This document shows positions 17,014-31,773 of a stretch of 55,259 bases of DNA, one piece after another. Source of the DNA: an uncultured Kiloniellaceae bacterium (GTDB taxonomy: Bacteria; Actinomycetota; Acidimicrobiia; Spongiisociales; UBA11373). The translations under genes were made by a program, and so were the position numbers. Location of the stretch: the NCBI GenBank assembly GCA_964194935.1, contig CAXMOL010000066.1, forward strand, positions 1-55,259, given 5' to 3'. Each line of letters starts with the position of its first letter. The stretch's first letter is position 1. A model generated the notes under the pieces. The model made no database searches, was not told where the DNA came from, and saw only the letters and a program-made list of their open reading frames with translations.

Positions 17014-17622
17014 ATGCAAGAGCTACTCGCCAACATCGCCGTGGCCGCCGCCACCGTGGCCACGTTGTTCTTTCTCGTGCCGCAGATCACCAAGCTGGTG
17101 CGCACCGGGGATTCTGCCGGCGTCTCGACCACCTGGCCGGCGATCGGGTTCATCAGCAACATCGGCTGGTTCGTGTACTTCGTGCACGAGGCCTTGTGGG
17201 CGTCGATTGTGGCGCCTTTTGGAGCCGCCGCCGGATACACGATCACCTTGTGGGCTCTGGCTCGTACGGGGCGGCCGCTCGGTCCGAGCTATCTCCGCGG
17301 CATTGTGTTCGGCGGGATTCTCGTGGCGACTACCGCGGTGGCAGGTTGGACCTCTCTGGGGGTCGCGCTCGGGCTGTCATTCGGAGTGATGATGGTTCCG
17401 TCTCTGTGGACCGCGTATCGAACTGCCAATCCGTCGGGCATCTCTCCTGGAACGTGGTGGCTGGGCGTTGCAGAGGCGGGGCTCTGGGGTTTCTACGGCT
17501 GGCACCACGGCGACGCCGGAATCATCACGTTCGCAGTTACCGCGTTACTCGGGTCGGCGGGAATGTTGGCCAGGCATGCTGCGACGAGTCGAAGGGCCTT
17601 TGTGGATGGCTATCGGGGGTAG
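17014..17622 (+). CDS. PQ-loop (SemiSWEET/SWEET-like) membrane transporter with two repeats
   Basis: Repeat 1: LVPQITKLVRTGDSAGVS. Repeat 2: MVPSLWTAYRTANPSGIS. About 7 TM segments. Confidence 0.7.
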   Translation: MQELLANIAVAAATVATLFFLVPQITKLVRTGDSAGVSTTWPAIGFISNIGWFVYFVHEALWASIVAPFGAAAGYTITLWALARTGRPLGPSYLRGIVFGGILVATTAVAGWTSLGVALGLSFGVMMVPSLWTAYRTANPSGISPGTWWLGVAEAGLWGFYGWHHGDAGIITFAVTALLGSAGMLARHAATSRRAFVDGYRG

Positions 17623-19064
17623 GACACCGGAGTCGGACTGGACTCGATGTCTTCGGAGGCGACTGCGGCTGAGTCGGCGAGCAGCGGGCGAAGCGTGAGT
17701 GTAAATCGGTTACGGCCTGATCTGAAGCTGTAGGTGAGGTCGCCTCCCATGAGACGCGCCAGATCTCGCGAGACCGGGAGTCCAAGTCCGATCGAGTCGG
17801 GCAACGTGGCCTGGTTCGATCCACTTTGATATCGCTCGAAGATCCGCTCCCGTTGGTCGAGTTCGATCTCATCTCCGTCGTCCCACACCGCCACCTGGAC
17901 CGTCGCTTCGTTCTCGCCAAGCTCGATGCCGATGTTGTCGCCCCCATACCTGAAGGCGTTGGAAACCAGATTGCGCAGGATTTGACGCACTCGAGCGGGC
18001 TCGCCGAGTGCACGTGCCGGTCCTCCTTCAACTGTGATGCGGGCCGCGGCAGGATCGGTCCACGACTTGACTATCCAGGTCACCTGTTCGTCGAGACTCA
18101 CCGGCATTTCGGCCACATGAAGAATGCCGGCGCCGGACCGTGCTGCGACGAGGAGATCTTCGAGCAGCTGGGAGAGATCGCGCCCCTGGCTCGACGTCAA
18201 CATCAATAGCTCGGCTCTTTCAGGTTCAGACAGTTGAGATTCTTGATCGGCGAGTAGGTCGATGAAACCGAGCACGGCGGTCAACGGCGTGCGGATTTCA
18301 TGGCTCACCGAAGCCACCAGTTGGGCGTTGGCACTGACCGATTCTTCAAGAATTCCTTGTTCTCGTCGGTGCCCTTCGGATATCGCGCCTTGCAACACCC
18401 AGATCAACCGGAGCAACAGGGCAGAGAAGATAGCGATTGCCAGAAGACCGATGGTCGTGCTTCGCGCTCCGGTCATCGGCGACCAGGTGGTGTTTGTCGA
18501 AGCAGTGATCGCCACGCCGAGAATCATCAGGGCATACCCACCGACCCACACTGCTCGTCTCAGGGGCAGCAGCATCAAAGCGGTGGCGACAGTCGTCAGG
18601 AAGGGGAGTGGCATCGCCAGGAACGGAACTTGGGCGAAGTACACGCCGGCACCGATCAGGGTGGTGTCGAGGAGGATCGAAAGGAACGGAGACCGGTTGT
18701 TCTGACGTAGGCGGAGGCGCGTCTCGAGATACGCCAGAAAGGCGAGTCCGGCAACCACGAACCCAGGCCACCATCCCCACCAGATCCCCAGACCCACACC
18801 GATTGTCGTCACGGCGTATTGCGCAGGGATCCGATATAGGTACCACTCCTTAGTGAGCTTGGCGTACCCGAATTCGGCCTCGACGGAGGCGGACTCGGAA
18901 GCGACTCGATCAGTCGACGATTCGGATGTTCTTGTGTGGTCTTCCGCGAGAAGAGCCACTTTGATCGGGACCGTAGGCAGGCGACGCCCTTCGCCACCGT
19001 TTTGGGACCCGTCGCCGAGCGACCGATCCTCTTTAGTGTTCCCGATTTGGGCACGCGGGCGCAT
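17610..19064 (-). CDS. Membrane sensor histidine kinase (orphan)
   Basis: About 5 TM segments, H-box SVSHEIRTPLT, N-box RNLVSNAFRY and G2 GLGLPVSR. Start placed at ATG 19064 because the ORF-track ATG at 19094 lies in the promoter motif. Confidence 0.88.
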   Translation of the reverse strand: MRPRAQIGNTKEDRSLGDGSQNGGEGRRLPTVPIKVALLAEDHTRTSESSTDRVASESASVEAEFGYAKLTKEWYLYRIPAQYAVTTIGVGLGIWWGWWPGFVVAGLAFLAYLETRLRLRQNNRSPFLSILLDTTLIGAGVYFAQVPFLAMPLPFLTTVATALMLLPLRRAVWVGGYALMILGVAITASTNTTWSPMTGARSTTIGLLAIAIFSALLLRLIWVLQGAISEGHRREQGILEESVSANAQLVASVSHEIRTPLTAVLGFIDLLADQESQLSEPERAELLMLTSSQGRDLSQLLEDLLVAARSGAGILHVAEMPVSLDEQVTWIVKSWTDPAAARITVEGGPARALGEPARVRQILRNLVSNAFRYGGDNIGIELGENEATVQVAVWDDGDEIELDQRERIFERYQSGSNQATLPDSIGLGLPVSRDLARLMGGDLTYSFRSGRNRFTLTLRPLLADSAAVASEDIESSPTPVSYPR

Positions 19065-19092
19065 CACCTTTTCCCTTCGCTTCTGTGGAATC

Positions 19093-19118
19093 ATCGGTGA
19101 CGCGAACCGATTCTTGAG
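19093..19118 (-). promoter_or_regulatory. Putative FliA/WhiG-type promoter (CTCAAG-N14-ACCGAT)
   Basis: Minus strand CTCAAG aatcggttcgcgtc ACCGAT, 28 nt before the kinase ATG. Confidence 0.65.
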
Positions 19119-19545: not shown

Positions 19546-20025
19546 TTGGAGAGAGCTCTGCGCCGCAACAATCACTCTGACGGTTTCACCCTGATCGAGC
19601 TCATGGTCGTGGTGATGATCATCGCGGTGCTCATCGCGATTGCCATTCCGTCGTTTCTGGGATTCCGAACCAACGCCCAGGACAAGGCAGCCCAAGCGAC
19701 GTTGACGACGGCCGAGAAGGTCACCCACCTGGTCATCCTTGAAGAGGGAAGTGTCCCCTCGAAGGCCACCCTCCTCGTCATGCTTCCGACCATCGAACCC
19801 TCAATCGACTGGATGGACCACGCTGATTCGTCAACGAGTCCGTCGCAGGTCTCAATCGATGATGACAACGGAGGCCAGGAGTTGGCGCTGGCGACCATGT
19901 CTGGGTCCGGGTCCTGCTTCTACCTGAGAGTGATCAACGGGTCGCTACCGGCCCGAAAAGTCGTTCAAGGTGCGGCAACCTGTGCGTCTCACGACTTCCA
20001 GGGCGGAGCCGACACCGGCTGGTAA
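19546..20025 (+). CDS. Type IV pilin / prepilin-like protein
   Basis: Class III signal G|FTLIELMVVVMIIAVLIAIAIP with Glu+5, and a C-terminal Cys pair. The start codon is uncertain. Confidence 0.88.
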   Translation: MERALRRNNHSDGFTLIELMVVVMIIAVLIAIAIPSFLGFRTNAQDKAAQATLTTAEKVTHLVILEEGSVPSKATLLVMLPTIEPSIDWMDHADSSTSPSQVSIDDDNGGQELALATMSGSGSCFYLRVINGSLPARKVVQGAATCASHDFQGGADTGW

Positions 20026-21831: not shown

Positions 21832-23298
21832 TCAGGAGCTCTCGCAGGCCACGACCACGGAGCGCCCGGAACACGCATCGTCGCCGGTTCCGCCGAAGAG
21901 GAGGTTGATCGGGCCGGTTCCCTTGAGTAGGTCGGCGCCTGCTTCGCCGAAGATGTGGTCGATCCCGTCGCCGCCATCGACCCGATCGTCTCCGGGGCCG
22001 GCACACACGATGTCATCGCCCGAACCCGCTCGGATCACATCATTGCCGTTCCGTCCGACGATTACATCACGGTTGTCGGTTCCGATGAGAACATCGCCGG
22101 CGTTGCTGCCGAGAATGGTTGCCCGCATACCGGTGCACGAGATCTCGGGCCACGGATCGGTGGCAAGCGCGACATTGGTGGCGTCGAGTCGCAGGGTTCG
22201 CTCCATCGTTCGTTCTATCGACCGGGTCAGGGTCCGCTCGGTCTCGATCCCAAGAGTGAGCGCGTCCTGGGCGGCAAAGACCTGAAGATCATCGACTCGC
22301 ACCCAGGTGGGCACCACTTCGATGCTATCCACGACGAGGCCGCTGGGGCCGTCGACGATATGGAAGAAGAGAAGCTGTCCCTCGTTGGTCGCGTAGTACT
22401 TCGGTCCCCATGCCGGATGCTGATTCGAGACATGGTTGCCCATGCTGTATGCCACGTACTTGCCTTCGACCATTCCGATTGGTTCGACGACGTGGGCGTG
22501 GTGTCCGAGGATCAGGTCCACCGCCGGATCGGACAACACCGATTCTGCGATGTCGTATTGGTAGCCGATCGGATTCGATGTGTACTCGACCCCCCAATGA
22601 AGAGAGAGCACCACGAATTCAGCCCCTCGGGCGCGAGCCCAGCGCGCATCCGACAGAATCGTCTCGACATCGATCTGGTTGGCCGCCCAGGGCTCGTCAT
22701 CGGGCGTGGGGATCCCGTTGAAGTGCTGGCTGAAGGAGAGGTGGGCGATCGTGACCCCCTCGACCTCATACAGGCTCGGCAACCTCTCGGTGGCCGAGCG
22801 GGCGGTACCGGAGTGTCCGATGCCGCGGGCGTCCAACTCATTGAGGGTCGCCATTACACCGGTGGGACCGCCATCGAGCGCGTGGTTGCTGGCGGTGGAG
22901 CACGCATCCCACCCGGCCGCCACCAGAGCGTCGGCGATCTGGTTGGGGGCGACGAATCGCGGGTAGTAGGAGAGGTTGATGTTGTCGCTGCTCAACACGC
23001 TCTCGAGGTGGCAGATCGAAAAGTCGGCCGCCGAAACCCACGGTTCGATCGACTGCAGCATCGGCCAGAAATCCCATTGCCCCGGTTCGGCTGCGTTGCG
23101 CGCTGCCAAGTCGGCCAGCCGAGAGTGGATCAACACATCGCCGGCCGCGGCGATGGTCAGCGAGCGCGGCGTCTCATCGGCATGGGCGGGGGGCGCCAAC
23201 ATCGCGACGGCAGTCAGCAGGGCGACCAGGTTGCGACCAGGGCTACGGAACTGGGACAGGCTCCGGCTCCCTTTCTGGTGCCGTGGGCGGGGGCTCAT
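21832..23298 (-). CDS. Secreted CapA (PGA_cap) metallophosphatase-family protein with C-terminal RTX-like Ca-binding repeats
   Basis: Signal peptide ending AHA, AGDV, ASNHALD, SLHWGVEY, GHHAHV and YSMGN. The C-terminus carries GxGDD-type nonapeptide repeats. Confidence 0.88.
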   Translation of the reverse strand: MSPRPRHQKGSRSLSQFRSPGRNLVALLTAVAMLAPPAHADETPRSLTIAAAGDVLIHSRLADLAARNAAEPGQWDFWPMLQSIEPWVSAADFSICHLESVLSSDNINLSYYPRFVAPNQIADALVAAGWDACSTASNHALDGGPTGVMATLNELDARGIGHSGTARSATERLPSLYEVEGVTIAHLSFSQHFNGIPTPDDEPWAANQIDVETILSDARWARARGAEFVVLSLHWGVEYTSNPIGYQYDIAESVLSDPAVDLILGHHAHVVEPIGMVEGKYVAYSMGNHVSNQHPAWGPKYYATNEGQLLFFHIVDGPSGLVVDSIEVVPTWVRVDDLQVFAAQDALTLGIETERTLTRSIERTMERTLRLDATNVALATDPWPEISCTGMRATILGSNAGDVLIGTDNRDVIVGRNGNDVIRAGSGDDIVCAGPGDDRVDGGDGIDHIFGEAGADLLKGTGPINLLFGGTGDDACSGRSVVVACESS

Positions 23299-27854: not shown

Positions 27855-28121
27855 ATGAACTACAAACGTGTAGTTCGGAAGGCGGAGGCCATGTACGAAC
27901 TGTCGGATTGGGGTCAACCGGTTGCACCTCCCGAGGCTACGAACCGGGAGAAGCTGACTGCGCAGCTCCCGCACAGCCTGATTCGGGTGCTACGGAGCCG
28001 AGCCCGAGCCCAGGGCGTCTCTCTCAACGTTCTGGTGGATCGACTACTACACGAGGCGATCGCAGTGCCCGCTCGCCACGAGACCGAGCACGCGGCCAGC
28101 ATCATGGTCGCATTCGACTGA
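27855..28121 (+). CDS. Small ribbon-helix-helix protein (HicB/CopG-like)
   Basis: KLTAQLPHSLIRVLRSRARAQGVSLNVLVDRLL. The start may be 27891. Confidence 0.65.
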   Translation: MNYKRVVRKAEAMYELSDWGQPVAPPEATNREKLTAQLPHSLIRVLRSRARAQGVSLNVLVDRLLHEAIAVPARHETEHAASIMVAFD

Positions 28122-28168: not shown

Positions 28169-29719
28169 TCAGTGTGGGTCGATGTCGGGGCGTTGCGATT
28201 CGACATCACCCGGCGGGTACCACCAGTCTTGATCGATCGGTCTGGCCTCCCTGACATTCCCGATCTGGCTCACCTGTGCCTCGTCCGAAACTGCCTCCTC
28301 CGGAACAATGGTTGGAGCCCGTGCCGGAAATGGATCGGGCGGAAGGACGAGTTCCTCAGCTTGGGCGAGTTGCAGAGACACTTCGAAAACCGTGAGGTCG
28401 CCGTCTCGCCGATAGCCGATCTTGCCTCCCATCCCGTCTGCGAGGACCTTCGATATCGAGAGCCCAAGACCGACGCTTCCCATGATCAGAGGGTCATCAC
28501 CGCGGTGGACGAACCGTTCGAACATCCGAGATTCGACCTCAGGCGGAACCCCGGGTCCGTTGTCGACGACCTCGATGACGTAGGTCGAGTCCTCGAGTCG
28601 CCCCGAGATCTCGACGCGACCGCCGCCGTACTTCGCCGCGTTGGAGACAAGGTTGCGTAGAAGCTGACGTAACCGGCCGGGGTCGGCCAGTACGAGTTCG
28701 CTGGCCATGTCCAGGTCGATTTGGGCATCCGACCGCTCGAACTCATGCCCGAGGCTGGCAACCAATTCAGCGATCTCGGTCGGCCTGAGGTCAAAGCGGA
28801 GTCTGCCGGCATCGGCTTGGCCCGATACAAGAAGGTCTTCGACCATGCGGGTGAGGTCGGCCGACTGGTCGATGATGACTTCGGTGAGTTCCTTGGTCAG
28901 GTCGAGATCTGCAAATCCCTCGTCCGACATGGCCAGCGCCGAGGTGTATATACCGGTGAGAGGTGTGCGGAGTTCGTGGGAGAGGTTGGCAATGAGTTGG
29001 TCCTTCGACTTGTTGAGCGCCCTTTCTTGCTCCAGTTCGACGGTCATCCACTCGCGTTTTCGTCTCCGACGGGAAACCAGGAATGCGACGACAACGGCCA
29101 CCGAGGGGACGAAGAACGCGACCATGAAGCGACTCGCAGTGGCGATGGTTCCGGACTCTGCCGCCGCACCCGCTATCCCAGCCGCCATTTCGTCGCGCAA
29201 GTCGGCCAGTTGATTTACTAGAGCACCGAACGAGTTGGACGATGCTCCGGTGGCGATACTGCTGGCACTCTCCAGATCGCCGATGGTGATGGCATCCAGC
29301 ACCTGTTCGGAGTCAGCGAGGACGGCCGCAAGGCTCAGCTCGAAGTCGGTTGCTTCAATGCCGTCGGTGGGTTCGGCGGGCTCTTCGGAGTCTGTGAGGG
29401 CGGTGACCACGGCAGTCACCCGTTGCTCCATGGCATCAATAACCGACTGGGCTTCGAATACTGCAGCTGCCGACAGTGAAGGATCGTTGGTGGAGCCTGC
29501 AATCAAAAGAGCCTGGCCGAGCGCGTTTCGGGCCGATGCCGCTGCTCCCAACGCCGATTCGGCCTCTTGTTGAAGGCGGGCATTGTCTGCGACCGCAACC
29601 ACTCCTGTGGCGTTGGTAAAGACGAGTGCGAGCGCGGCGAGCAATCCAGCCGCCGCCACGAGGGCACCGCCAGCAAGAGCGCGTCCCGGCGCGCCCGCCT
29701 GAGCTTGAACGTCTTCCAC
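28169..29719 (-). CDS. Membrane sensor histidine kinase (orphan)
   Basis: Two TM segments flanking an extracytoplasmic region, ANLSHELRTPLT, RNLVSNAAKYGG, DNGPGV and GLGLSISK. Confidence 0.92.
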   Translation of the reverse strand: MEDVQAQAGAPGRALAGGALVAAAGLLAALALVFTNATGVVAVADNARLQQEAESALGAAASARNALGQALLIAGSTNDPSLSAAAVFEAQSVIDAMEQRVTAVVTALTDSEEPAEPTDGIEATDFELSLAAVLADSEQVLDAITIGDLESASSIATGASSNSFGALVNQLADLRDEMAAGIAGAAAESGTIATASRFMVAFFVPSVAVVVAFLVSRRRRKREWMTVELEQERALNKSKDQLIANLSHELRTPLTGIYTSALAMSDEGFADLDLTKELTEVIIDQSADLTRMVEDLLVSGQADAGRLRFDLRPTEIAELVASLGHEFERSDAQIDLDMASELVLADPGRLRQLLRNLVSNAAKYGGGRVEISGRLEDSTYVIEVVDNGPGVPPEVESRMFERFVHRGDDPLIMGSVGLGLSISKVLADGMGGKIGYRRDGDLTVFEVSLQLAQAEELVLPPDPFPARAPTIVPEEAVSDEAQVSQIGNVREARPIDQDWWYPPGDVESQRPDIDPH

Positions 29720-29730
29720 TGACTAGTGAG

Positions 29731-29757
29731 ATCGGTGGAAACGGGGTGATCCTTGAG
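29731..29757 (-). promoter_or_regulatory. Putative FliA/WhiG-type promoter (CTCAAG-N15-ACCGAT)
   Basis: Minus strand CTCAAG gatcaccccgtttcc ACCGAT, 11 nt before the kinase GTG. Confidence 0.65.
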
Positions 29758-29789
29758 TCCTGGTCGCATCTATGCCGATGTTTCTAACG

Positions 29790-30719
29790 ATGACCCTTCT
29801 CAAGCCGCGCCCGGCGCGTATTGCGGCCTGCTTATTGGTGGGCGCACTCGTCATGGTTCCGCTCAGCGCCAATGCTGCGCCTACTGGCGCTGTGCCGAAT
29901 GATGATCTTGCCGCTGCAAGCTACCGAGCCAATAACGAGGACGACCCTGCCAAGAACGCGGAAAAAGAGGCCGTAGCGGCGGCTAAGGAAGCGGAGCGGG
30001 TGGCGGAGGCGGCGGCCAGGGAAGAGGCAAGGGTGGCTGAGGCGGCGGCCAGGGAAGAGGCAAGGGTGGCTGAGGCGGCGGCCAGGGAAGAGGCAAGGGT
30101 GGCTGAGGAGGTGGCCAAGGAAGAGGCAAGGGTGGCTGAGGAGGTGGCCAAGGAAGAGGCAAGGGTGGCTGAGGAGGTGGCCAAGGAAGAGGCAAGGGTG
30201 GCTGAGGCGGCGGCTCGCGAGGAGGAGAAGGCTGCTGAGGAGGATCCAGTCGGAGCAGTCACGGGGCCAGGCGGTGCTTCACCAAGCCCGTCGCCTGTCG
30301 GGGCGACGCCTGCCGAGGGCCCCCCCGACGGCGCGGCCGTATCGATTGATCAAGTGCTTGTCCCCACTCATCTCAGTGCAGCGATGGAGTTGTTCGATCA
30401 ACAGGCTGAGGCTTCGAGCTCGGTTCCGGCTCCGGTGACAACGCCGACGGGGATGGTCTCCGGGAGTCTGGTACGAGAGCTGGCGCCGGTGCTGCCTCCG
30501 TTGCTGACTGACGTAGTAGCGGCTCCATTCGTGGTCATCGAGGCGCTCATCGCCGCGATGGCGGCGAGTGGCCAGGCACTGGTGATTCCGCTCCTTGCCG
30601 GTGCTGCTGGGTTCATGGCACCGGTTGTACGTCGTAAGCATCTTCTGGCTGAAGCGCTTGGCAAGAATTCCGAACCTGTTCCATCGAATGAACCGAGAAC
30701 TGTCTTCATCGGTTGGTGA
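29790..30719 (+). CDS. Exported surface protein A: 11-aa Glu/Ala repeat stalk and C-terminal hydrophobic anchor
   Basis: Signal peptide MTLLKPRPARIAACLLVGALVMVPLSANA|AP, EEARVAE(AAAR/EVAK) repeats and a C-terminal hydrophobic stretch plus RRK. Start set by alignment with the paralog. Confidence 0.8.
   Translation: MTLLKPRPARIAACLLVGALVMVPLSANAAPTGAVPNDDLAAASYRANNEDDPAKNAEKEAVAAAKEAERVAEAAAREEARVAEAAAREEARVAEAAAREEARVAEEVAKEEARVAEEVAKEEARVAEEVAKEEARVAEAAAREEEKAAEEDPVGAVTGPGGASPSPSPVGATPAEGPPDGAAVSIDQVLVPTHLSAAMELFDQQAEASSSVPAPVTTPTGMVSGSLVRELAPVLPPLLTDVVAAPFVVIEALIAAMAASGQALVIPLLAGAAGFMAPVVRRKHLLAEALGKNSEPVPSNEPRTVFIGW
29988..30218 (+). repeat. 33-bp coding tandem repeat x7
   Basis: GAAGAGGCAAGGGTGGCTGAGG(CGGCGGCCAGG/AGGTGGCCAAG); the first copy is degenerate. 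Confidence 0.95.
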
Positions 30720-30831
30720 GCGCCTGCACATTCCAGTGCGGTGCTGCATGGACCATCGTTCCTAACTAGTCACCCTGCCCGACCAGGGTTGATTCTTGAG
30801 TATTGGTAGCCCGGATGTCGATACTTTCCAT

Positions 30832-31773
30832 ATGACTCATGTCAAGCCGCACCTGGCGCGTTTCGCAGCCTTCTTCTTGGTGGGTGCACTCGTTATGGCT
30901 CCACTTGGTGCAAGTGCGGCCCCGCCTGTGGTGGTGCCTGGTGACGATCTCGTCGCGGCGAGCTACACGGAAGAGGATCCCGAGAAGGCGGCCAAGGAAG
31001 ACGAGAAGCCGGTCAAGGAAGACGAGAAGGCGGCCAAGGAAGACGAGAAGGCGGTCAAGGAAGACGAGAAGGCGGCCAAGGAAGACGAGAAGGCGGCCAA
31101 GGAAGACGAGAAGCCGGTCAAGGAAGACGAGAAGCCGGTCAAGGATCCCGAGAAGCCGGTCAAGGATCCCGAGAAGGCGGCCAATAGCGGTAACAGCGGT
31201 AATCCCGGCAACGGCAATAACGGCAATGACGGTGAGAACGGCAATAGTGGCACCGAGAACCCCGGCAACAGTGGCACCAGCGGTAATCCCGGCAATGGCA
31301 ATAACGGCAATGACGGCGAGAACGGCAACAGTGGCAATGCTGGCCGAGCCGGAGTGGCCCCAGGGTTAGGCGCGGCGCCTCCCAGCCTGACACCTTCCGG
31401 GGTAACCCCGACCCAGGGCGGACTCGGATCGATCGATGCTCGCGTCCTACCTGTTCATCTCGGTGCTGCGATCGTGATCTTCGACCAGAACAACGAGACC
31501 GTGACCTCGATCCCAGAGCCTGTGGCACCGCCGATGGGGATGGTTTCGGAGAACTTGATACGAGAACTGGCACCGGTGCTGCCGCCAATGCTGGTCGACG
31601 TAGTCGCGGCGCCCTTCGTGGTGATCGAGGCTCTAATCGACGCGATGGCGTCGAGTGGCCAGGCGTTGGTGATCCCATTCCTCGCCGGTGCGGCCGGGCT
31701 TATGGCGCCGGGTGTACGCCGCAAGAATCTCCTGGCCCAAGCGCTTGGCCAGAATCCCGACTCGGGTTCGTAA
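30832..31773 (+). CDS. Exported surface protein B (paralog of A): 7-aa charged repeats, Gly/Asn repeats and the same C-terminal anchor
   Basis: MTHVKPHLARFAAFFLVGALVMAPLGASA|AP; the C-terminus aligns with protein A. Confidence 0.8.
   Translation: MTHVKPHLARFAAFFLVGALVMAPLGASAAPPVVVPGDDLVAASYTEEDPEKAAKEDEKPVKEDEKAAKEDEKAVKEDEKAAKEDEKAAKEDEKPVKEDEKPVKDPEKPVKDPEKAANSGNSGNPGNGNNGNDGENGNSGTENPGNSGTSGNPGNGNNGNDGENGNSGNAGRAGVAPGLGAAPPSLTPSGVTPTQGGLGSIDARVLPVHLGAAIVIFDQNNETVTSIPEPVAPPMGMVSENLIRELAPVLPPMLVDVVAAPFVVIEALIDAMASSGQALVIPFLAGAAGLMAPGVRRKNLLAQALGQNPDSGS
30973..31182 (+). repeat. 21-bp coding tandem repeat x10
   Basis: Units K(ED/DP)EK(AA/PV/AV), e.g. AAGGAAGACGAGAAGGCGGCC. Confidence 0.95.

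Follow-up and report, generated by a model that had tools for sequence, protein, structure and literature searches.

What two tandem genes for exported, repeat-rich proteins do beside the divergently oriented gene of a sensor histidine kinase is the question raised by a 55,259 bp stretch of DNA (contig CAXMOL010000066.1 of GenBank assembly GCA_964194935.1, called the window below) from an uncultured bacterium of the class Acidimicrobiia. The two proteins, A and B, and their homologs are here called the X family (signal peptide, spacer, and C-terminal module), and the kinase encoded at 28169-29719 is called HK1; labels L001-L035 denote the X and kinase loci fetched for comparison, G000 is this genome, and C numbers are contigs. 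Comparison of these loci shows that HK1 and X form a two-gene module that is old within its order, has a common bidirectional promoter, and was duplicated as a pair. It also shows that X is constrained in its signal peptide, membrane helix and adjoining juxtamembrane segment alone, while the stalk outside changes freely. A and B may well be single-pass membrane partners, or co-sensors, of the orphan kinase, a reading to which we would give roughly even chances; the features on which the argument draws are listed in Table 1.

Table 1. Features of the HK1-X region of the window
Feature	Position	Strand	Description
Ribbon-helix-helix (RHH)-like open reading frame (88 aa)	27855..28121	+	Convergent with HK1; weak Pfam RHH-family matches
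HK1, orphan sensor histidine kinase (516 aa)	28169..29719	-	HisKA 4.6e-14, HATPase_c 1.2e-20 (Pfam); GTG start
Promoter-like element, HK1	29731..29757	-	CTCAAG-N15-ACCGAT, ends 11 nt before GTG
Promoter-like element, A	29752..29779	+	CTTGAG-N16-GCCGAT, ends 10 nt before ATG 29790
Protein A (309 aa)	29790..30719	+	Signal peptide, acidic helical stalk, Pro-rich hinge, C-terminal anchor module, A-type cytoplasmic tail ..SNEPRTVFIGW (predicted)
A stalk	29940..30239	+	~100 residues, one uninterrupted alpha-helix in model; contains the 33-bp array
A repeat array	29976-30214	+	33-bp unit x7.2, 94% matches; 11-aa AAAREEARVAE (Tandem Repeats Finder)
A C-terminal module (132 aa)	30321..30716	+	SID..LP.HL.AA..FDQ helix, short helix, PVLPP, 55-residue helix
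A 55-residue helix	30498-30662	+	Holds hydrophobic core, RRK, and start of cytoplasmic tail (AlphaFold2)
Weak terminator-like hairpin between A and B	30772..30789	+	Hairpin count at chance level, low weight
Promoter-like element, B	30795..30822	+	CTTGAG-N16-GTCGAT, ends 9 nt before ATG 30832
Protein B (313 aa)	30832..31773	+	Signal peptide, repeats, Pro-rich hinge, C-terminal module, short tail ..NPDSGS
B heptad array	30981-31184	+	21-bp unit x9.7, 92% matches; 7-aa KEDEK(A/P)(A/V), KEDEKAA/PV (Tandem Repeats Finder)
B Gly/Asn-rich array	31169-31333	+	84-bp unit x2 (Tandem Repeats Finder)
B C-terminal module	31408-31770	+	Alignment

A conserved anchor and a freely changing stalk

A and B are built on one plan, as an earlier note made from the letters of this DNA had proposed. 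Their likely translation starts are ATG 29790 and ATG 30832, because the -10 elements of the putative promoters overlap the starts of the longer same-strand open reading frames (ORFs), which span 29772/29790-30719 (A) and 30796/30832-31773 (B). The two are tandem paralogs (45% identical, E value 1e-68 in BLASTP) whose identity sits in the N-terminal ~45 and the C-terminal ~120 amino acids (69% there); their DNA is 68% identical in the 100 nt upstream, 74% where the N-terminal part is encoded and 77% where the C-terminal part is, and therefore the duplication, in which the upstream region was included, is not recent. Each begins with a signal peptide (amino acids 1-29, ending ..SANA/AP in A and ..GASA/AP in B, where the slash marks the predicted cleavage point; shared pattern MT..KP..AR.AA..LVGALVM.PL.A.A/AP), and alignment gives DDL.AASY, a Pro-rich hinge, and the conserved C-terminus as further common parts. 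Hydropathy analysis finds two hydrophobic segments in each protein, an N-terminal one of signal type (A-N-A/A-P or A-S-A/A-P) and a C-terminal one of ~34 residues with RRK after it. Beyond stalk, hinge and anchor the mature proteins contain nothing further, and neither has a head domain.

The repeats of the two stalks are unrelated, and Tandem Repeats Finder confirmed the types that the note had read, 11-residue Glu/Ala/Arg units in A and 7-residue Lys/Glu/Asp units plus Gly/Asn in B; every unit (33, 21, and 84 bp) is a whole number of codons long. Both stalks are acidic, with net charges of about -16 (A) and about -14 (B). In the AlphaFold2 model of full-length A (as its 315-aa ORF) residues 57-156 are a single helix (pLDDT 89-97), which if straight would be a rod about 15 nm long; at 32% Ala, 25% Glu, and 16% Arg plus Lys its charge content is below that of classic ER/K helices. 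In B the stalk has a K/E/D part punctuated by prolines and then a Gly/Asn part that we read as flexible.

Among orthologs the middles are 94-148 aa long and of E/A/R, K/D/S, K/E/D, or G/N type; those of A orthologs (94-129 aa) differ in repeat count, and those of B orthologs are G/N alone, K/E/D plus G/N, or KKDK(T/S)EKSS. Across the X family the spacers are E/A/R, K/D/S, K/E/D, G/N, G/Q/D/N, D/G, or Thr-rich with the plan otherwise constant, and a few members have true folded domains in this place (L027, P0049, P0067, and the 752-aa P0054, with a fragment on C123 of this genome). Stalks also differ between co-occurring strains: in contigs from two runs of the study that contains the best-matching run, 368 bp (30921-31288) are swapped for 32 other bases between nearly identical flanks. 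This replacement removes the B heptads and most of the G/N repeat, and it matches the G/N-only type of B. In the best-matching run one contig is short by an 84-bp unit, perhaps through collapse during assembly. The modular, swapped stalks of variable length that had been predicted are therefore real, and the middles compared vary in both type and length.

After its signal peptide the window's B carries PGDDLVAASY and charged repeats, like A (30832-30990 compared with 29790-29950), and B orthologs in other samples start SVTVIGNSLAANGNG instead; the B of the window thus looks like an A/B hybrid stalk, possibly made by recombination between the tandem copies. Contigs of metagenome-assembled genomes often stop inside or beside X genes (L009, L011, L016, L024, and L035). 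Because their repeats break short-read assemblies, X genes are systematically under-counted, which matters for annotation.

Low-complexity middles, overlapping ORFs on the opposite strand, and the lack of a matching RNA run could suggest that A and B are spurious ORFs across GC-rich repeat DNA. However, in at least 10 genera the protein sequence of their termini is conserved in frame despite divergence of the DNA, promoter and start context are conserved, and the repeat units are multiples of three without exception. This pattern of conservation effectively refutes the idea, which we regard as exceedingly improbable.

The conserved C-terminus of the earlier note is present (~120 aa), although it is, as modeled, a juxtamembrane segment plus a long membrane helix, an anchor rather than a globular, soluble domain. 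AlphaFold2, given the C-terminal 132 residues of A and a 50-sequence alignment, builds two short helices and then a long one (H60-114) at pLDDT 80-92; the pTM of 0.33 implies no globular fold (the AlphaFold2 models overall have pTM 0.29-0.33). In 50 diverse sequences P69 and P90 are invariant, and PP59-60, A79, and R104 are nearly so (module numbering); the helix consensus is L.PVLPP.L.D.V.SP.VV.EAL..A.ASSGQALV.P-x13-RRR, and within X conservation is strongest in this helix. The A-x-A signal segment, the hydrophobic helix with RRK, and the modeled helix together predict membrane anchoring with an extracytoplasmic part, and A and B should, by the topology that their sequences suggest, be type-I single-pass membrane proteins. 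The X C-terminal helix module also forms the end of a large surface protein whose Ig-like modules recur and whose linkers are rich in Asp (L005/L030, at G000:C123 3-1208, and P0054); the C123 contig is too short for its kinase neighborhood to be judged.

The order of PVLPP motif, hydrophobic stretch, and basic cluster, on a module portable enough to occur on proteins with quite different N-terminal parts, might also be that of a new sorting signal of the LPXTG or PEP-CTERM type, at which a dedicated enzyme would cleave and either attach the stalk to the wall or release it. We consider this quite improbable. Neither LPXTG nor LAXTG occurs in A, B, or the 50-sequence alignment, where PVLPP stands instead, ~10 residues ahead of the invariant Pro; PEP motifs are absent as well, and no NCBIfam model of a PEP-CTERM/exosortase sorting domain matches at E <= 1. 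The conserved region, at ~70-120 aa, is far longer than known sorting signals. The hydrophobic segment and basic tail do not lie at the extreme C-terminus, as 18 residues in B and 29 in A follow RRK (15-30 beyond the basic cluster across the family), and this extension is conserved in the A type (..SNEPRTVFIGW). Moreover, only 1-4 proteins per genome carry the module, and its conserved neighbor is a kinase; in the loci whose ORFs were read (their products domain-scanned in part), nothing resembling a transpeptidase or protease gene was seen.

No named family was recognized in the earlier note, and none was found in the searches for a characterized one: A and B match no Pfam-A or NCBIfam family above cut-off or noise (only low-complexity matches at E <= 1), and a search of PDB with the C-terminal profile found no matching chain. 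Searching 5.8 billion proteins by indexed words gave 10 close relatives, and 60 clusters (two of them spurious repeat proteins) came up when 1.84 billion representatives were searched exhaustively with the profile; none is named in either case. The module is present in 5/5 congeners, 22/61 relatives, and 21/301 genomes sampled across the class, and all genome matches fall in one order of Acidimicrobiia; the sequence occurs in marine-sediment metagenomes. The X family is undescribed and lineage-restricted; precedents exist for the kind of system it would represent, whether an exported repetitive protein or an auxiliary membrane protein of a sensor kinase.

Four other assignments were tried and rejected. 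A and B have no match to N_methyl (Pfam; G/FTLIE motif), as type IV pilins should, and the true pilin at 19546-20025 and the C29 pilin do match. A collagen-like protein (Scl/SclB) is not indicated for B, which scores 15.9 bits against the Pfam Collagen cut-off of 27.2 and 20.4 against the NCBIfam SclB cut-off of 325; its Gly period of three is repeatedly broken, and it has no uninterrupted Gly-X-Y. The Cys lipobox of lipoproteins and the RR-x-F-L-K motif of Tat substrates are absent from both proteins.

Pairing with an orphan kinase

HK1 has a first transmembrane helix (TM1) at ~aa 14-36, an Ala-rich extracytoplasmic region at ~aa 37-190, a second transmembrane helix (TM2) at ~aa 191-216, then HisKA, HATPase_c, and an unconserved 60-aa tail; a comparison of its sensor region with PDB gave nothing useful. 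It is indeed divergent from A, as first read, with a gap of 70 bp. Searches of the loci with tblastn and hmmsearch found ~24 X-kinase pairs in at least 20 genomes and two metagenome contigs, from several families of the order, and an ortholog or paralog of the kinase adjoins X in all informative loci but one (five are uninformative because of contig ends). The pairs are divergent in the window and in L001, L002, L018, L008, L010, L012/L032, L013, L014/L034, L015/L033, L017, L020-L023, L025, L026, L028, and L029, and co-directional in L027 and on the C146 contig of this genome; three more are indicated by the coordinates from two independent searches (G059:C6, G050:C1, and G057:C10). G013 has a kinase ortholog with a divergent X-like ORF (signal peptide and Thr-rich) that runs off the contig, and kinases with a strongly orthologous sensor region (E < 1e-18) are confined to X-bearing genomes if this ORF, cut by the contig end, is counted. 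The kinase of the paralogous pair on C146 is 38% identical, and the pairing is kept; as paralogous pairs keep it, X and the kinase were duplicated together. The link to the adjacent kinase that the earlier note had put forward as a possibility is thus much stronger than was guessed, synteny having held in ~24 loci of several families.

No adjacent response regulator was found at any locus examined. The genome has 19 receiver domains, none of them in the window, and a tblastn comparison of all 19 with ~30 loci found one, ~3 kb from X in L032.

In 17 kinase sequences TM1 (LLAALALV(F/Y)TNATGV) and the membrane-proximal helices reach 0.67-0.73 and are as conserved as the catalytic core, whereas the middle of the sensor region has values of 0.15-0.45; in the most distant pairs (L028 and L029) kinase TM1 and X helix have both diverged. 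The conservation of TM1 and this parallel divergence are consistent with contact at the level of the membrane, and are no proof of it.

Two relatives of this arrangement were seen. In L027 (4265-7449 of G040:C42), from another family of the order, an X whose stalk is Thr-rich and whose N-terminus forms a folded domain lies directly upstream of the kinase and co-directional with it, and this kinase is fused to what sequence motifs indicate to be an EAL-type (c-di-GMP phosphodiesterase-like) domain. The other is at G000:C79 3-4072, where the gene after a third kinase paralog of this sensor family, in the same orientation, encodes a product longer than 769 aa that has many repeat modules and, at its N-terminus, a hydrophobic segment resembling a transmembrane helix. 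Kinases of the HK1 sensor family tend to adjoin surface proteins. Orthologs of the RHH-like ORF downstream of HK1 are adjacent in L001, L002, L018, and L034 and lie 1-5 kb away in six other loci.

If A and B are partners of HK1, they would be exported by a Sec-type signal peptide cut after A-x-A, and would hold an acidic low-complexity stalk outside the membrane, followed by the Pro-rich hinge and ~45 conserved juxtamembrane residues. The long conserved helix (PVLPP-(S/A)P..EAL..SSGQAL.IP-hydrophobic-RRR) would anchor the protein and leave a short cytoplasmic tail. This helix would pack against TM1/TM2 and the membrane-proximal helices of the kinase, all of them equally conserved, and kinase output would depend on the X partner. 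The stalk might report a physical property of the cell envelope, or the kinase might gauge the membrane pool of X, as PilS does with PilA; the kinase would signal to a response regulator encoded elsewhere or, in a single lineage, by way of the EAL domain fused to it. The module and the type IV pilins would be expressed together, by way of promoters of a sigma-28 (FliA/WhiG)-like class. We prefer a partner to the surface display or adhesin system of the earlier note because the pairing with an orphan kinase is nearly constant, mature A and B have no head domain, and the transmembrane helix is their most conserved part.

Several observations weigh against such a partnership. A kinase that merely regulates X would be just as likely to show linkage and co-duplication with it. 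L019 is an extra X copy in a genome with a regular pair elsewhere, and no kinase lies within 9 kb of it. The presence of the module on the large multi-domain surface protein of C123 and P0054 is more like that of a general anchor, and two or three X genes per kinase, with exposed stalks that diversify fast, are what one would expect of structural proteins at the surface. The kinase has an extracytoplasmic region of its own (~155 aa) and no obvious need of a co-sensor, and among the RNA sequencing runs searched for the stretch none match.

A and B might accordingly be exported, membrane-anchored structural, spacer, or adhesive proteins of the envelope, comparable to mycobacterial Erp, whose expression the kinase regulates without touching them and whose exposed stalks diversify under external pressure (phage, grazers, or surfaces). 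We think this rather unlikely. It would accommodate the signal peptide, hypervariable repeats and hydrophobic C-terminus, the stalk swaps between close strains, the several copies per genome with one away from any kinase (L019), the anchor module on the 752-aa multi-domain protein, and a promoter class common to pilins and an M23 wall hydrolase. On the other hand, A and B lack a head or binding domain; the most conserved transmembrane helix has E, SSGQ, and two invariant Pro that a plain anchor would not need; pairing with one kinase family has survived paralogous duplications across the whole order; and kinase TM1 is unusually conserved.

An unannotated module, confined to one order of uncultured marine-sediment Acidimicrobiia, is tied to one family of orphan histidine kinases. 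If the helix does control the kinase, control would be exerted by a C-terminally anchored partner with a hypervariable stalk alone outside, and X would offer a way to find out which signals these orphan kinases respond to.

The bidirectional promoter and its class

The -35 hexamers of the promoter-like elements of A and HK1 are the same six base pairs of the 70-bp spacer, read as reverse complements. The A-type element precedes X in L001, L002, L008, L010, L012/L032, L020, L025, and L035, and that of HK1 is in the same place in L001, L002, L008, L012/L032, and L017; each has one -10 base changed in L018 and L023. The back-to-back arrangement, 6-13 nt before both starts, is kept in at least seven genera. 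The element before B is a duplicate of the A promoter in which the kinase-facing half has decayed, and it is present before B in L002 also. The short distances from promoter to start imply that the mRNAs would be leaderless or nearly so.

The elements are (G/A)CCGAT at -10 and CTCAAG at -35 with N15-16 between them; in the A/kinase intergenic region a scan for the sigma-70 consensus gave no promoter. The -10 element resembles that of sigma-28/FliA/WhiG promoters (GCCGATAA), and CTCAAG is one base off CTAAAG. The genome has a gene for a sigma factor of the FliA/WhiG family (C148:46315-46986; 268 bits, curated cut-off 189.6), and no flagellin gene was found in the assembly, which is 88% complete. 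A loose form of the pattern has 29 matches genome-wide, compared with five in a reversed control and 9-15 in shuffles, so that an apparent enrichment of ~6x over the former drops to ~2x over the latter and the count alone is weak; it is for its position and its conservation across genera, and not for this count, that we judge the promoter to be functional.

The pattern occurs right before the starts of three type IV pilin genes (two with Pfam N_methyl, the third by motif), one of which adjoins PilB/PilT-type ATPase genes, and also before the second kinase of the window, an M23 peptidase with a PG_binding_1 domain, and a NERD-like ORF; sites elsewhere in the genome are C29:192, C33:8075, and C144:4740. 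The earlier suggestion of a possible link to a pilin regulon therefore stands at the level of a shared promoter type. The set looks like a group of pilus and envelope genes under a flagellar-type sigma factor, and a FliA/WhiG-type sigma may serve such genes in a genome where no flagellin was found. The second kinase of the window is also an orphan (494 aa with several transmembrane segments, 17610-19094 on the minus strand), and it lies beside the type IV pilin gene at 19546-20025; CTCAAG-N14/15-(A/G)ACCGAT stands ahead of both, in parallel with HK1/X and recalling PilS/PilA. Elsewhere in the window, at 21832-23298, a single ORF of 488 aa carries both a PGA_cap domain, associated with synthesis of a poly-gamma-glutamate capsule, and RTX repeats of the calcium-binding kind.

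The most far-reaching form of the partner reading would make the X-kinase pair an undescribed envelope sensor, in which a fast-evolving stalk, unstructured or a rod-like ruler (~15 nm in A), probes the mechanics of the wall or the distance to it and signals through the transmembrane helix to the orphan kinase. Such a pair would correspond in bacteria to the Wsc1 nanospring of yeast, and a FliA/WhiG-type sigma would deploy it with type IV pili in a lineage with no flagellin gene found. This we hold to be improbable.

Comparison with known systems

The sorting signals read by sortase (LPXTG) and exosortase (PEP-CTERM) are, like the X module, portable and composed of a motif, a hydrophobic helix, and an Arg/Lys cluster near the C-terminus. 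X differs from them in having none of their signature motifs, in the length of its module (70-120 aa), in running 15-30 aa past the basic cluster, and in its few substrates per genome, with no linked sorting-enzyme gene noticed. Mycobacterial Erp (Rv3810) is like X in its signal peptide, its central repeats that vary in unit and number between species, and its conserved hydrophobic C-terminus; unlike X, its repeats are of PGLTS type, and X matched no family above cut-off in Pfam or NCBIfam. To our knowledge Erp is not paired with a kinase, a pairing that is the defining feature of X.

The yeast wall-integrity sensors Wsc1 and Mid2 have stalks that span the wall and act as mechanical probes of it. 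They resemble X by analogy, in signal peptide, long low-complexity stalk, single transmembrane segment, and short cytoplasmic tail, but they are eukaryotic, their stalks are Ser/Thr-rich and glycosylated, and they have no two-component kinase partner, so the resemblance is one of architecture alone.

In Pseudomonas aeruginosa PilS senses PilA in the membrane. HK1 would likewise sense a conserved hydrophobic helix with an embedded Glu, belonging to a surface protein stored in the membrane, and the window holds a second kinase gene divergent from a type IV pilin gene with the same class of promoter. The differences are that A and B lack the N-terminal methylation motif and are not pilins, that HK1 has two transmembrane segments where PilS has six, and that there is no PilR-like regulator nearby.

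The other known parallels are the single-pass auxiliaries of kinases, YycH/YycI with WalK, LiaF with LiaS, MzrA with EnvZ, and SaeP/Q with SaeS; the control of WalK runs through contacts of its transmembrane helices with YycH/YycI. X has no sequence similarity to such proteins (no Pfam or NCBIfam match, and for YycH/YycI no Pfam-A family at E <= 1 besides low-complexity noise). Its anchor is C-terminal, after a cleaved signal peptide, and not N-terminal, its outside part is a hypervariable low-complexity stalk and not a folded domain, and HK1 has no adjacent response regulator; the interaction of X with its kinase is a proposal drawn from the genes. X and these auxiliaries are alike in being encoded beside the kinase, often by two tandem genes, and in being anchored in the membrane with an extracytoplasmic part.

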